A DNA stretch of 26,635 bases from an uncultured archaeon (GCA_964590575.1 CAZPWM010000038.1:1-26635); one strand, 5' to 3'; counted from the stretch's first letter, positions 1,006-16,798 are shown. A program made the numbers and translations. Notes: generated by a model from the letters alone, not told the origin.

Positions 1006-2358
1006 CTACTCAAAATTGGCTGACTCGATGATTCCCAATACTGTTTTTTCCCAGGTATCGAGTTTATCCGGGCTGTTTGGATAATTACGATACACCTTGT
1101 CCATTTTTTTCATCAAACCCGCAGTTTTCTGTAATTTCAGCAGAAGTGAGATTTTGCCTGCACCCCTCTTTATCCTCTTCATTTTATCTGCCACACTTAG
1201 TGAAAGTCCATCCCCACGATTAGCAGCCATTAGGTCTTCTGCCTCTAAGAGTCGCCTTTCGAAACCGAAGTCCATATCCTCGTCAGATACTGCTTGCAGG
1301 AGTCTCCGGAAGATTTCGAGTGAAGCCAATCGTCTACCGAAATTCGGAAGATAGCGAGTGTTGTAGGACCATAGGCCTGTTGCTGTTAGATTTCTACTCG
1401 CAATTGATTCTCGCACAACTTCACCTAGTATAATTCCTGCTCGCATTCCGGCACCAATTCCGCCTCCATGAATTGGATTGACCTGCAATGCTGCATCACC
1501 AACAAAAGCTATCCCCTCTCCAACTAGGCTCTTGAGAGGCCTCCGGACTGGGACTGCTCCTCCTTTTCCATCGATTAGTTCTGCTCCAAAGAGTAATGGA
1601 TAATTCTCCTTGAACTTTGTGAAATATGATTTGGGTGATCCTCGCCCTTTTCCTCCTGTTATCCCAACACCTGCATTGACCTCTTGAACACCCTTTGGGA
1701 AGATCCATGCATATCCTTGTGGTGCTGCCTCACCCCCAAGAAAAACACGTGCGACCTCTGGTTCAGCTAATGGCATCTTAAGACGGACGACCTCCCTGTA
1801 ACAGAGGGCGATATCTTCTTTGTCAATATTGTTCTCAATCAAAGAGTGTTCTAATTTACTTCTAATCACTGCGGCAAAACCACTTGCATCGACAACAATC
1901 TTACACTTGATTATGACCTCTTCTCCAGATGTGAGGTCTTTGTACTCGATACCTTTGACTTGGTCTCCGAGCACCATGGGACTTCCAACATGGATATTCG
2001 GAAGGAACTTTGCGCCTGCAGTAATCGCCTCATTCAAGAGTCGTTGGCCAAAATTTAACCTGTTCACAGTCCATCCATCGAACTCTGTCCATCCTCTAAC
2101 TTTCAACTCGTTTTTCCTGTTGGGTGGATAGACATCTGCGCCCGTAATTTCATAGGAAACTTCGTCACCTTCTGGATAATCTATACCTGTTGCCTCAAAG
2201 TGTGATCTGCTGATCTCGTCTCCGCAAACTTTCTGTCCGATTTCTTTCAATGGTTTTCTGTCTAAAAGGAGTGTTTTCAAACCAAGTTCTGCACATCTTC
2301 TAGCAGTAACGCATCCTGCGGAACCAGCTCCAACAATTACAACATCAGGTCTCTTCAA
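1006..2358 (-). CDS. Geranylgeranyl reductase family flavoprotein (DGGGPL reductase-like)
   Basis: FAD-binding VVIVGAGSAG, KVCGD, YAWIFPKG and VGDAALQVNPIHGGGI motifs; TTG start. Confidence 0.9.
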   Translation of the reverse strand: MKRPDVVIVGAGSAGCVTARRCAELGLKTLLLDRKPLKEIGQKVCGDEISRSHFEATGIDYPEGDEVSYEITGADVYPPNRKNELKVRGWTEFDGWTVNRLNFGQRLLNEAITAGAKFLPNIHVGSPMVLGDQVKGIEYKDLTSGEEVIIKCKIVVDASGFAAVIRSKLEHSLIENNIDKEDIALCYREVVRLKMPLAEPEVARVFLGGEAAPQGYAWIFPKGVQEVNAGVGITGGKGRGSPKSYFTKFKENYPLLFGAELIDGKGGAVPVRRPLKSLVGEGIAFVGDAALQVNPIHGGGIGAGMRAGIILGEVVRESIASRNLTATGLWSYNTRYLPNFGRRLASLEIFRRLLQAVSDEDMDFGFERRLLEAEDLMAANRGDGLSLSVADKMKRIKRGAGKISLLLKLQKTAGLMKKMDKVYRNYPNSPDKLDTWEKTVLGIIESANFE

Positions 2359-2388
2359 AGTCTATCGATATGATAGGAGCGCTCTGTA

Positions 2389-2396
2389 ATTTAAAT
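2389..2396. promoter_or_regulatory. Putative archaeal TATA box (ATTTAAAT) in the divergent GGR/purA gap
   Basis: Palindromic TTTAAA about 31-38 nt upstream of the GGR start. Confidence 0.4.
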
Positions 2397-2464
2397 GCCT
2401 GCATGATTACCAAGGTCAAATACTAGCCATAATGGTTATCTGCAACCAACGACGGCACCGAATC

Positions 2465-3766
2465 ATGAACTCCTCGCAGAACTTGGTTATTGTCGGGTTG
2501 CAATGGGGCGATGAAGGGAAAGGAAAGATTGTCGATGTTCTTTCTGAGAACTTCGATATTGTGGTACGATTTCAGGGTGGTAGTAATGCAGGTCATACAG
2601 TACTCGTCGATGGTGTGACTCATAAATTTAGAATCCTACCCACTGGAGCAATCCGAGGAAAGAGAGTTGTGATTGGTAACGGTGTTGTTGTTGACCCAGT
2701 TGTACTGGTTCAGGAGATAGAAACTCTCACAAACAATGGCGTGAATATCGACCTTCTTATTAGTGATCGAGCCCACTTGATTACACCTTATCAGATTCAG
2801 ATTGACGGTCTCCACGAAGATGCAAAGGGTAGGAAAAAGGTTGGTACCACTAAACGAGGAATTGGTCCTACTTACGCTGACAAGGTATCACGGATAGGTG
2901 TTAGATTTTGCGATTTTATGGGAACAACAAATGAACAGTGGGAAATTCTAGAGTCTATGTCTAAATCTAGTATTGAGAAGGTGCATGAAACTACTATTGT
3001 TGACCCCGATTCCGCATCAAAGAAATCATTCTCTACCCTTGTTCAGAAGTTATTATCCTACGTTGGTGACTGTGGAGAATATTTGGAGTCCGAGATGAAC
3101 CTTGGAAAGCGTGTTCTCTTTGAAGGAGCGCAAGGAGCTTTGCTTGATATTGATCATGGAACATACCCCTATGTAACTAGCTCAAATTGTGTTTCGGCTG
3201 TGGCTTCAACTGGGACTGGAATCTCTTTTTCACGCCTTGGCTCAGTTCTTGGCATATCTAAGGCTTATTTGACACGAGTTGGAACTGGACCATTTCCAAC
3301 TGAACTTGAGGATGATATCGGAGAGAAACTGCGAGAACGTGGAAAAGAATACGGTACTGTGACCGGACGGCCTCGAAGATGTGGTTGGCTGGACCTTGTT
3401 GCACTAAAATATGCCATTCGTCTCAACGGCTGTGAATACCTCGCAATTACTAAAACTGATGTTCTGACTGGAATTGACCCGCTGAAGGTCTGCGTCGCAT
3501 ATGAGATTAATGGAATAGAAACAAGGACATTCCCTGCAAGTGCTGAAGTTCTTTCGGAGGTTATTCCAGTGTATAAAGAGATAGATGGCTGGTCAGAGGA
3601 CATTCAAGTTCCTTCCGACGTTGAAGGTCTGAAGGGTCTTCCTGATCAATTGCAAAAGTATCTCTCGCTCATTAATCAGTCAACTAGCTCAAAGATTGCT
3701 TTGGTTTCCATTGGTCCTGATAGAGCAGAAACTATCATGCTTCGAGAGACAGGATCTAACATCTAA
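2465..3766 (+). CDS. purA: Adenylosuccinate synthetase
   Basis: Motifs GLQWGDEGKGK, GGSNAGHT, GTTKRGIGPTY, FEGAQG and GTVTGRPRRCGWLD. The ATG at 2465 is preferred over 2432. Confidence 0.97.
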   Translation: MNSSQNLVIVGLQWGDEGKGKIVDVLSENFDIVVRFQGGSNAGHTVLVDGVTHKFRILPTGAIRGKRVVIGNGVVVDPVVLVQEIETLTNNGVNIDLLISDRAHLITPYQIQIDGLHEDAKGRKKVGTTKRGIGPTYADKVSRIGVRFCDFMGTTNEQWEILESMSKSSIEKVHETTIVDPDSASKKSFSTLVQKLLSYVGDCGEYLESEMNLGKRVLFEGAQGALLDIDHGTYPYVTSSNCVSAVASTGTGISFSRLGSVLGISKAYLTRVGTGPFPTELEDDIGEKLRERGKEYGTVTGRPRRCGWLDLVALKYAIRLNGCEYLAITKTDVLTGIDPLKVCVAYEINGIETRTFPASAEVLSEVIPVYKEIDGWSEDIQVPSDVEGLKGLPDQLQKYLSLINQSTSSKIALVSIGPDRAETIMLRETGSNI

Positions 3767-4299
3767 ACGTGTTTCACTTCTATCATCACAATGGAAATGA
3801 TGATGACTGCTGCAATGATGAGCAGTATAGGGGGAGCAAAGCTGAGGAAAATTCCAAAGTACTGTACAATCCTCGCAGGATCTAGAGCAATTATTGCTAG
3901 ATGTCCCCACACAAGAAGAAATCCATAGATTGCGAAAATCGGATAGAGGATTGGACCTCCAGTAATAACAAGGAGAAGAATGATCACTGCTAACCGATTC
4001 TTCGTAGGGTCAAACAGGGGCACCTTAATAGTTTCTTGATCACTTACTTCAAAATAGTACATAATGAGTATAGTCGGCAATCGCAGCCGAATCAATTCTA
4101 GAATTTGTACACCCTGCTGTATCGAGAGAAGTATGAATGTGTGGCATAGCATGTATCCTAGGACCATGCCGTTTAGGATAGGTAACGATGGTGTAAAAAG
4201 CTGCAAACTTTCGATGATTCCTACTAAAACTGAAAAGTTGACCAAAAATAAGATTAGATGCCCGAGTGCACCCTTCAGATACTGGAATTTAGATACCAT
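3763..4299 (-). CDS. Uncharacterised multi-pass membrane protein (about 4 TM helices)
   Basis: Several long hydrophobic segments and a purine-rich RBS; starts 23 nt after the stop of the Rab-like GTPase gene. Confidence 0.75.
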   Translation of the reverse strand: MVSKFQYLKGALGHLILFLVNFSVLVGIIESLQLFTPSLPILNGMVLGYMLCHTFILLSIQQGVQILELIRLRLPTILIMYYFEVSDQETIKVPLFDPTKNRLAVIILLLVITGGPILYPIFAIYGFLLVWGHLAIIALDPARIVQYFGIFLSFAPPILLIIAAVIIISIVMIEVKHV

Positions 4300-14754: not shown

Positions 14755-15831
14755 CTAGGTTTTTCTTTTTCCCAGTAGGAATTCTTCAACCCATCTCTCT
14801 GCTCTGTACATAGTTGTTGGCGTTGGAGGCATTTTGAATCCATAAGCTGAGATTGATTCTAGAGACCCTCCAATACCTCTCTTCATTGCCAACTTTGTAC
14901 CCCTGATTGCGTCCATGAGAATTGGACCTGCATTAGGCCCATCAGTGACTTCCATCCGGATGTCAATCTTGATCGGAGCTCCACCAAACTGACGACCACC
15001 GATGTAAAAGAATGAGTCCCTTGCGTTCGACATGAAATCTACGAAATCACTTGACCCCGCAACCAATGGTGCATCATAAGGCAGGTCTTGACTAATAGCC
15101 TCACTCTTTACGCCCCTCTTCCTCATCCTTCCCCTATAATGAGAGTCCAAAGACTCCGCACCACCTCCAATATCGAGCTGGTAGCTTTGGTCCACTCTTA
15201 CACCTCTTGAAACAAGGAGTTGGAGAATACTGCGATGAAGTACAGTCGAACCTAGCTGGTCCTGAATATCATCTCCGACTAATGGGAGCCCTTTCTCATT
15301 GAATTTCCTACTCCACTCCAGGTCAGAAGCAATAGAGATTGGGGCACCATTGATAAAAGCACAACCAGCTTCTAGAGCTGCGTTTGCGTAATAGTTGGTC
15401 GCTTTTTCTGCTGAACCGGGAATTAAGTTAATGAGAATGTCGGCTCCAGAATCATTGAGAGCCCTAACGACATCGGCATCTTTGGTCGAAGAAACAGTGA
15501 CAAGTGCCTTGAGCATATCATCGACACCATCAAGCGTAGGACCCTTCATCACCTCAACACCAGTCTTTGGAACTTTTGCAAAAGCCATTACATTGTTGGG
15601 CTTGGCAAAGATAGCTTCTGAAAGATCAAAACCTACCTTGGTGTCAGCTACATCAAAAGCTGCTACAAATTGGATATCCCTCACATGAAATCCAGCAAAG
15701 TCAGGATGTCCAAGGCCAATGACCTCGGTGTTTGCTGTTGCATCCTTGTAAAACTCGACTCCCTGCACAAGTGCACTTGCACAATTGCCTACTCCGCATA
15801 CAGCGACTTTAATTCCATTCAAATGTGCCAC
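14755..15831 (-). CDS. ino1: myo-Inositol-1(3)-phosphate synthase
   Basis: GVGNCASALVQG, FVAAFDV, VGDDIQDQLGST..HR and DGPNAG..MDAIR motifs. Confidence 0.93.
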   Translation of the reverse strand: MAHLNGIKVAVCGVGNCASALVQGVEFYKDATANTEVIGLGHPDFAGFHVRDIQFVAAFDVADTKVGFDLSEAIFAKPNNVMAFAKVPKTGVEVMKGPTLDGVDDMLKALVTVSSTKDADVVRALNDSGADILINLIPGSAEKATNYYANAALEAGCAFINGAPISIASDLEWSRKFNEKGLPLVGDDIQDQLGSTVLHRSILQLLVSRGVRVDQSYQLDIGGGAESLDSHYRGRMRKRGVKSEAISQDLPYDAPLVAGSSDFVDFMSNARDSFFYIGGRQFGGAPIKIDIRMEVTDGPNAGPILMDAIRGTKLAMKRGIGGSLESISAYGFKMPPTPTTMYRAERWVEEFLLGKRKT

Positions 15832-15865
15832 CTCTTGCTCTAGTTCTTCGAAATCCGGCAGATTT

Positions 15866-15894
15866 CTTATAAGTTATTCTATGAGTATAGAATA
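15866..15894. promoter_or_regulatory. TATA-like CTTATAAG with an adjacent 8-bp inverted repeat (possible operator) upstream of ino1
   Basis: CTTATAAG at 15866-15873, followed by TATTCTAT-gagt-ATAGAATA at 15875-15894. Confidence 0.4.
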
Positions 15895-15947
15895 GTTAAG
15901 GTGATAGAACGTGGGGGAAGGACTTATGTTGGTATGTTGCATACAAT

Positions 15948-16196
15948 AGAGTGGACGATGGCTGATGTCTGTTGCTCCCGCATCATCGAAAAGTCGTGGG
16001 AATGATGCAACTGCGTTGAATCGGCGTATACGAATGTCCTCTGCAGGGAAATTCGTGCTCTCACCCCCGAGGGTTCAGAGACGTGTCCTGACAACGTATA
16101 TACTGGAGCACCACTCATGTTCAAAATAACAAAAAGAGGGTGGACCTCGAGCCCGCAAAATCGGGCACCAATTGGCGTCTGCTATCGTCCACCTCT
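15948..16196 (+). ncRNA. Putative structured non-coding RNA of unknown family (about 250 nt)
   Basis: The two ends pair over about 18 bp with three G-U wobbles on the + strand. There are several nested internal stems and no convincing ORF. Confidence 0.6.
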
Positions 16197-16387
16197 TCTT
16201 GTGCTACTTTGCTATTCTGGTTCGAAAATGGCAAGGGCATGAGTTTATAGGTACTTCAATCATCTTGAAAAACAGCAGTACCCTCAAAGATTAGTTGAAT
16301 CACAAGCTCCAGAGTTCCAGACACTGCTTTGCGATCCCTGAGGAAGATTCTACTTTTGAAGCCTGCAAATCTAGGACGTGAGATATC

Positions 16388-16798
16388 ATGGGATACCAAG
16401 AGAGAGAGCCCATTGAGGCTAAAATTTCAGAACTTACGCCAAGAATGAAGAGTGTGAACATTTCATTCAAGGTAGTCGACAAAGGCGAAGTCAGGGAAGT
16501 AACTTCCAGAGCTGACGGAGCACAACACCGAGTGTGTGACACAGTTGTTGGTGATAGCACTGGTATTGTGACAATCCCACTGTGGGATGCTGCAATAGAT
16601 GAAGTCGAGATTGAAAAGACATATCGTCTTGAGAATGGTTACACCACCCTCTTTCAAGGACATCTTCGACTTAATATCGGGCGTTATGGCACCTTGAAAG
16701 AAGCTGAAGACTCTATTGAAGAAGTCAATAAAGAAGTTGATTTGAGCGAACAAGAGCATGAAAGTCGACCAAGGTATGGTGGCCGCGGTCGCTATTAG
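16388..16798 (+). CDS. Single OB-fold single-stranded DNA-binding protein (SSB/RPA-like)
   Basis: KISELTP..KSVNI.FKVVDKGEVREV, VGDSTGIV..LWD and NGYTTLFQGHLRLNIGRYG motifs; Arg/Gly-rich tail. Confidence 0.92.
   Translation: MGYQEREPIEAKISELTPRMKSVNISFKVVDKGEVREVTSRADGAQHRVCDTVVGDSTGIVTIPLWDAAIDEVEIEKTYRLENGYTTLFQGHLRLNIGRYGTLKEAEDSIEEVNKEVDLSEQEHESRPRYGGRGRY

Follow-up and report, generated by a model that had tools for sequence, protein, structure and literature searches.

The question raised by this locus is whether a compact and strongly folding stretch of about 250 nt, flanked by ino1 on one side and by an Ssb-like OB-fold gene on the other, is the gene of a stable RNA and, if so, of what kind. 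Of all known organisms, the Asgard archaea are the closest relatives of eukaryotes; very few of them have been cultured, and their repertoire of non-coding RNAs is almost unexplored. The first-pass annotation of the window (the whole stretch of DNA analysed, 26,635 nt from an uncultured archaeon) had offered two readings of the element, a novel Asgard non-coding RNA or a highly diverged RNase P/MRP-like RNA. The observation as a whole is partly confirmed, the element being real and far beyond chance, and the interpretation as a whole is partly supported.

Location, coding potential and distribution

The plus strand of the flagged element folds with a minimum free energy of −96.7 kcal/mol (z −4.99), which none of 200 dinucleotide shuffles equalled or bettered; the fold of the minus strand has a z of −1.52, and 17 of 200 shuffles were as good. 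A covariance model matches it over its full length and delimits a discrete non-coding RNA gene (Table 1). The mature RNA probably extends from about 15951–15953 to about 16190, some 240 nt. The sole internal ATG, at 16117, is ACG in other genera; there is therefore no conserved ORF, and the element appears to be non-coding. That it is a real single-copy gene and represents an RNA family is, in our view, almost certain.

Table 1. Features of the RNA element, its flanks and the aligned metatranscriptome contigs (window coordinates)
Feature	Position	Strand	Details
ino1	14755–15831	minus	divergent; Pfam Inos-1-P_synth
Putative promoter: BRE-like purine-rich stretch 15913–15921, TATA-like box ACTTATGT 15922–15929	15913–15929	plus	65 flanks
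RNA gene	15951–16200	plus	R1 232 bits (model 1–251); R2 197 bits (model 1–248); fold z −4.99
P1 (GGACGA) and P1b (GGC), 5' strands	15953–15962	plus	pair with 16181–16190
P2, 5' strand GAUGUC	15964–15969	plus	pairs with 16174–16179 (GGCGUC)
P3, 5' strand GCUCC	15974–15978	plus	pairs with GGAGC 16105–16109; predicted to close central three-way junction
H4, variable hairpin GCAUCAU.../...AUGAUGC	15980–16008	plus	10 of 10 pairs with double changes
Central arm	16012–16098	plus	H6 16012–18 with 16092–98; H7 16023–25 with 16085–87
H8 hairpin ACGAAU-G-UCC / GGA-A-AUUCGU	16030–16056	plus	96–99% paired; 7 of 8 pairs with double changes
H9/10 hairpin UCUC-ACCC / GGGU-(UCA bulge)-GAGA	16059–16081	plus	supported by covariation counts
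3' domain: CCACUC, AYGUUYA, A-rich stretch, GAGGGUGGACCUC	16110–16151	plus	
H14, small hairpin CCCG-loop-CGGG	16152–16165	plus	94% paired; 3 of 3 pairs covary
Pyrimidine/T-rich tract, presumed terminator	16191–16215	plus	directly after P1; 66 flanks
Ssb-like OB-fold gene	16388–16798	plus	Pfam PF21473
Metatranscriptome contig X1	15989–16171		
Metatranscriptome contig X2	15967–16154		
Metatranscriptome contig X3	16027–16177		
Metatranscriptome contig X6	15967–16151		

With a 286-nt query, blastn located the element once in each of 20 of the 24 congeners (genomes belonging to the same genus), with identities of 69–85%; one genome, G020, additionally has an 88-nt fragment on a contig of 541 nt. 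The search gave no match in 16 genomes of other Asgard genera. Alignment A1, comprising 21 of the 22 blastn places (the 88-nt fragment was omitted), was the source of covariance model R1. This model has a single full-length match (model positions 1–251) in 67 of 87 Thorarchaeia genomes, distributed over 15 of the 17 genera of one family and including 21 of the 24 genomes that are at least 90% complete. Genus g23 (four genomes) and the sister family f2 (one genome) gave no match to R1, and with filters switched off nothing was found beside ino1 in either; in G063 another ORF abuts ino1. Found in 0 of 4 genomes, at the syntenic site or elsewhere, the RNA appears to be dispensable in genus g23, these being metagenome-assembled genomes, for which a missing match does not equal absence.

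A second model, R2, built from 27 sequences of 14 genera (alignment A3), was applied to a phylum-wide draw, in which it recovered the RNA from 23 of the 26 genomes belonging to the Thorarchaeota family. Nothing credible was detected by R2 among 124 genomes of 26 other Asgard families, where it gave just two marginal matches, at 16.8 bits (E 0.03) and 15.3 bits (E 0.09); the higher-scoring of them is missing the 130 central positions of the model. The element's own genome holds no paralogue, the next best match scoring 10.9 bits, and a search of that genome for the H8 and H9/10 modules, or for GGGUGGACCUC or its complement, found nothing elsewhere beyond chance. The element is thus a single-copy gene of one Thorarchaeota family rather than a repeat.

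Covariation and secondary structure

Covariation among homologues, named in the first-pass annotation as a test of function, is present. The alignment used (A4) holds 66 sequences, from 65 of the 67 R1-positive genomes plus one (G094) from the phylum-wide draw; G076, with a 159-nt partial match, and G079, with a match at a contig end, are omitted. Its 60 modelled pairs are 93.1% paired, compared with 39–47% when the 3' partner is slid by 1–3 columns; double changes are seen at 49 pairs, and not one of 500 shuffles does as well on any of the five measures used, in an alignment that was fitted to the covariance model and leans to the model structure. A MAFFT alignment of the 21 congeners gives 98.0% paired against 37–46% when slid, with 14 double-change pairs and again 0 of 500 shuffles. 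Because the genomes are related and hence not independent, these shuffle controls exaggerate the significance.

The strand of the RNA can be read from the same data. The earlier argument that G-U pairs fit only the plus strand is borne out across A4, in which 408 G-U cells stand against 41 A-C cells (about 10:1), and pairing drops from 93.1% to 83.4% when the opposite strand is read. The excess of G-U and this drop together place the RNA on the plus strand.

The terminal stalk consists of P1, P1b and P2, 15 bp in all. P1 (15953–58 with 16185–90) is 95% paired with double changes at four of its six pairs, and P1b (15960–62 with 16181–83) is 97% paired with both its pairs covarying. The closing stem as first drawn was longer: its core GGACGA/UCGUCC (five of six pairs in 66 of 66 sequences) and the covarying distal GGC/GCU stand, and its outermost pairs, 15951–52 with 16191–92, are kept in only 15 and 33 of the 66 sequences and fall away. 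The GATGTC/GGCGTC stem, also proposed at first sight, corresponds to P2 and is 80% paired by cells with 4–6 pair types per position. The proposed TGCTCC/GGAGCA helix is 84% paired by cells, changes being almost all one-sided; in the form of P3 it is 92–96% paired, again with nearly all changes one-sided, and is compatible with the alignment rather than proven by it. The GCATCAT/ATGATGC hairpin (H4) was correctly recognised, at 82% pairing with strong covariation.

The long arm had been drawn with an outer part that the alignment rejects. Its inner hairpin, CTCT.ACCC-loop-GGGT(TCA)AGAG, is supported as H9/10, but the outer pairings TATACG/CGTATA and CAGG/CCTG are only 59% and 45% paired; covariation instead backs UGCGUUG/CAACGUA (84%), GGC/GUC (97%) and ACGAAU.UCC/GGA.AUUCGU (96%). 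The first two of these are H6, 84–90% paired, and H7, 97% paired; they hold the top MI-APC pairs of the entire alignment and enclose the near-invariant H8 and H9/10. H8 carries a conserved purine-purine mismatch and a loop with CUGCAG, and contains the stretch that had been likened to CR-I. Within H9/10 the stretch GUUCAGAG is nearly invariant.

Two mutually exclusive folds can be drawn for the 3' domain, one pairing CCACUC with GGGUGG and the other a local GAGG-GUGGA-CCUC hairpin. Both fit most sequences, with one-sided changes and no decisive covariation. At H14 a letter is missing from one or both of columns 16152 and 16165 in 8 of the 66 homologues. In the consensus, conservation falls mainly on H8, H9/10 and the 3' domain, with peaks at the H8 mismatch, at the UCA bulge with GUUCAGAG, at the second GUUCA-type word and in the junction strands. 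An MI-APC scan over all column pairs of the 66 sequences gave no convincing non-nested helix, the top pairs all being nested pairs of the model. Of the non-nested candidates the strongest is 16071 with 16176, a solitary pair next to P2 that we judged to be phylogenetic noise.

Promoter, terminator and transcripts

A TATA-like box lies about 22–28 nt ahead of P1, the first helix. In the 65 upstream flanks aligned there it reads CTTAT(G/C)T or CTTAATT at a constant spacing to the RNA start, with A+T of 0.9–0.99 at three box positions and purines preceding it. Judged by established archaeal promoter architecture, the box and the purines would form a BRE/TATA promoter. Further upstream, at about 15886–15897, the word ATAGAATAGT(T) occurs within the intergenic region shared with ino1 and recurs in many genera 45–60 nt ahead of the RNA start; it may belong to the ino1 promoter on the opposite strand or be a regulator site.

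At the other end, a pyrimidine-rich tract 3' of the hairpins had been noticed at the outset, and it is present in all homologues: 66 of 66 downstream flanks open with a CCNCYTYTTYT-like tract, and no conservation is seen farther on. We infer that this tract is the terminator. A putative promoter at fixed distance, the tract, the lack of a conserved ORF and compensatory changes are together what would be expected of a stand-alone archaeal non-coding RNA.

Support for transcription comes from RNA libraries. Seven metatranscriptome runs (seven studies) held 5–18% of the words sampled from a 1401-nt stretch centred on the element. Contigs were aligned for four of these runs (four studies), and element contigs were found in all four libraries, all within 15967–16177. 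The record of X1 is 257 nt long, with an insert of roughly 205 nt between loose ends on both sides that we take to be sequencing adapter letters. On its 3' side a relative's sequence runs on to the last base of P1 and is followed by adapter-like letters, a weak hint that X1 derives from a short discrete cDNA ending at about 16190. No contig lies on 15400–15966 and two low-depth contigs lie on 16290–16704, uncovered parts and depths of this kind being no basis for ranking genes. Neither strand nor true ends nor level can be read from assembled contigs, and DNA may be present in an RNA library; the contigs support expression and do not prove it.

Nature of the RNA and rival readings

The proposal of a novel Asgard non-coding RNA stands up well, the element being single-copy, covarying, apparently promoter-bearing and without an Rfam match. 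On balance, we lean towards a free-standing, stable RNA of about 240 nt that acts in trans and constitutes a new family within one Thorarchaeota family, a view that takes in the scaffold outlined below. "New" here denotes an RNA family without a detectable relative rather than a demonstrated new mechanism. No description of the RNA was found in the full-text literature covered, which excludes subscription journals and bioRxiv supplements.

The plus strand would be transcribed from its own TATA-type promoter, and transcription would stop at the pyrimidine/T-rich tract behind the P1-P1b-P2 stalk. By pairing both RNA ends, the stalk would shield the molecule against exonucleases. Inside the stalk, a multi-way junction is predicted to bear, first, a domain built on the three-way junction, with H8 and its mismatch and H9/10 and its UCA bulge at the end of its long arm; second, the 3' domain, which contains the A-rich stretch, the invariant GGGUGGACCUC and two motifs of the GUUCA type; and third, a small variable hairpin. 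The RNA would serve as the scaffold of a ribonucleoprotein, whose proteins would bind at the invariant nucleotides of the bulge, the mismatch and the junctions. A scaffold of this kind, probably protein-bound and acting in trans, is a tentative suggestion to which we give appreciable, if less than even, credence. It is put forward because conservation sits in irregular helical elements and not in one long unpaired seed, because the ends are locked in the 15-bp stalk, and because complementarity to 16S, 23S and SRP RNA was negative apart from a non-conserved match of the H8 loop.

A covarying single-copy RNA found in 15 genera and in metatranscriptomes of sediment can be regarded as a candidate lineage-specific machine of the cell; to experimenters it offers a defined sequence, a covariance model and a secondary structure that has been tested. 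Among known RNAs, the element resembles OLE, ROOL, GOLLD and the raiA motif in being lineage-restricted, multi-helix, strongly covarying and an orphan when found. Those are bacterial or phage RNAs, which were expressed and had no known function when found, and OLE, ROOL and GOLLD are larger than the ~240 nt of the element. The element differs from them in being archaeal and in having no Rfam match, whereas they are in Rfam.

Could the RNA instead act in trans by base pairing, as a regulator or as a guide or chaperone of pre-rRNA? We consider this unlikely. It does have conserved stretches that are predicted to be unpaired or weakly paired, the candidates being GGGUGGACCUC, AYGUUYA and the H8 loop, and six conserved segments were each compared with the genome's own 16S, 23S and SRP RNA (18 tests). 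Segment 16036–16049, with the H8 loop, is complementary to a 23S site (G000:C2:55048–55061; 12 bp, dG −24.8, z −4.07, 0 of 100 shuffles) and to the 5' end of 16S (G000:C73:13820–13834; 12 bp and one bulge, dG −22.2, z −2.99, 2 of 100 shuffles). The other 16 tests gave z of −0.8 to +1.5, however, and no other conserved segment is complementary. The H8 loop varies within the genus (CGUCGCA, CGUCAUG, CGACGUC and others) and rRNA termini are normally conserved, therefore the pairing is not maintained; the H8 stem itself would also need opening. The complementarity of the H8 loop to rRNA is probably chance.

The 16S match used in these comparisons (G000:C73:13812–16104, L128) has a peculiarity of its own: it covers 2293 nt for model positions 4–1467, on a contig that ends 47 nt later, and so contains about 800 nt of inserted sequence, possibly in the form of one or more introns.

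The H8 loop also bears on the idea that the RNA assembles with itself, into homodimers or larger bodies, by way of a self-complementary apical loop. Homodimers and assemblies have reportedly been described of late for some large bacterial orphan RNAs. A 6-nt Watson-Crick palindrome is present in 7 of 37 distinct H8 loops, where shuffles give an expectation of 2.6, and 10 of the 37 are palindromic when G-U is allowed; the palindromes differ by lineage (CUGCAG, GACGUC, AAAUUU, CUGUAG), the loop lying at 16040–16046 in the window. They may hint at loop-loop dimerisation. Yet 27 of the 37 distinct loops lack a 6-nt palindrome, the surplus over expectation is small, and the loops cannot be counted as independent, CUGCAG probably being one inherited state counted repeatedly, so that we regard self-assembly as quite unlikely.

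More far-reaching, and to be rated as very unlikely, is the notion of an RNA at the core of an Asgard-specific machine, either a catalytic or pre-rRNA-chaperoning ribonucleoprotein or a dimer held together by the palindromic loop. Complementarity of the H8 loop to the 16S 5' end invites comparison with U3, which pairs with eukaryotic 18S rRNA; the variation of the loop within the genus weakens the catalytic or chaperoning option.

A catalytic RNA, in particular a diverged paralogue of the RNase P/MRP type, is highly improbable. Like archaeal RNase P RNA (RF00373, clan CL00002), the element is a single-copy gene in the style of a housekeeping RNA, a few hundred nucleotides long, whose ends pair to form a terminal helix, with a second helix behind it, and whose fold has several domains. 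The size is about right for a ribozyme of this type, a helix joins the 5' and 3' ends, the element contains words, GAAUGUCC, that we take to resemble CR-I loosely, and its own assembly is without a detectable rnpB. Against this, the element has no covariance-model match and no P4 formed by CR-I and CR-V, and it is confined to one archaeal family. Rfam 15 (4227 families) gave no match anywhere in the window at gathering score. At E<=10 with lax filters, only isrK (16 bits) and mir-320 (14 bits) appeared in 15830–16400, both noise, and 14 distant homologous loci from other genera gave a single, unrelated match outside the RNA. The Rfam comparison suggested in the first-pass annotation thus returned nothing for the window or for its distant homologues, and even at E<=10 no model of clan CL00002 (RNaseP_arch, RNaseP_nuc, bacterial A and B, type T) or of RNase MRP matched.

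The two structural arguments for such a relationship fare no better. The CR-I-like stretch is the 3' arm of the covarying local hairpin H8. The suggested P4-like pseudoknot (16050–60 with 16163–73) has 54% of cells paired in the 66 homologues, with no compensatory pattern. Both of its strands are occupied by other covarying helices, the first being the H8 3' arm and the second lying with its 5' end in the GCCC/GGGC hairpin, H14.

A canonical rnpB elsewhere in the genome had also been proposed as a check. Of the 24 congeners, 21 have a canonical RNaseP_arch gene on another contig, scoring 142–170 bits for most, and 17 have this gene as well as the element. Among the 14 genera sampled, 13 likewise carry the canonical gene on other contigs. 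In the element's own assembly (91% complete, 194 contigs) no rnpB was found by covariance model or by blastn with the genes of three congeners; since 21 of the 24 congeners have the gene, the simplest reading, and the probable one, is a gap in the assembly. With no model match, with the P4 and CR-I proposals failing and with a canonical gene alongside, the RNase P/MRP relationship is largely refuted, and its exclusion removes a tempting but wrong evolutionary story.

One rnpB locus deserves separate mention. L126 (G001:C7:27600–32600), from one congener, has two RNaseP_arch matches, at 1004–1343 and 3650–3975, both on the minus strand, 2.3 kb apart and scoring 157.5 and 110 bits. The two do not differ by a letter over the first ~225 nt, CR-V is degraded in the weaker copy, and the space between them holds a single ORF of 743 aa (1402–3633, minus). 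The arrangement resembles an insertion with partial rnpB duplication rather than a functional pair of the P/MRP type.

Other known RNAs can be set aside on similar grounds. Archaeal SRP (7S) RNA (RF01857) is comparable to the element in size, closed ends and abundance in RNA libraries, but neither SRP model (RF01857, RF00017) matches the element, and the genome has a separate SRP RNA of full model length on another contig (G000:C124:23–333, L001; 83 bits). That score is below the Archaea_SRP gathering score of 96.5, and standard annotation would miss the gene. As to Y RNA, the partner of the TROVE protein Ro60, there is no Rfam match, and no TROVE domain (PF05731) was found in the element's own genome (91% complete), in a search whose control matched two named genomes; the La domain had no match there either, and its control also matched nowhere.

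The position of the element, on the same strand as the Ssb-like gene that starts 190 nt after the terminator-like tract, could suggest a cis-acting leader or riboswitch that controls this gene through termination or read-through. A comparison of neighbourhoods at 37 loci from 16 genera, plus the window, makes such a role exceedingly improbable. ino1 is upstream and divergent at 33 of them, and a convergent CCG/Fer4 gene occurs at 31, directly next to the RNA where the Ssb-like gene is missing; a same-strand Ssb-like gene follows at only 15 of the 37 loci, and the RNA is therefore not its leader. In addition, the RNA has what appears to be its own promoter, the sequence beyond the tract is unconserved, and the Ssb-like family is multi-copy and present where the RNA was not found. 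As a partner, too, the Ssb-like gene was rejected, for it has 1–11 matches per genome in 86 of 87 genomes and 0 in the 87th, and so shows no specific link. The family (PF21473) is an expanded one: the element's own genome has seven matches, for example G000:C80:7202–7603 and G000:C19:21063–21473, and tandem pairs are frequent across Thorarchaeia.

Finally, a mobile element (MITE) or a palindrome at the DNA level, which the long terminal inverted repeat might suggest from sequence alone, has a negligible probability, since the dispersed copies that the first-pass annotation associated with a MITE are replaced by one copy per genome at one syntenic site, and since compensatory changes and the ten-to-one preponderance of G-U over A-C are signatures of RNA.
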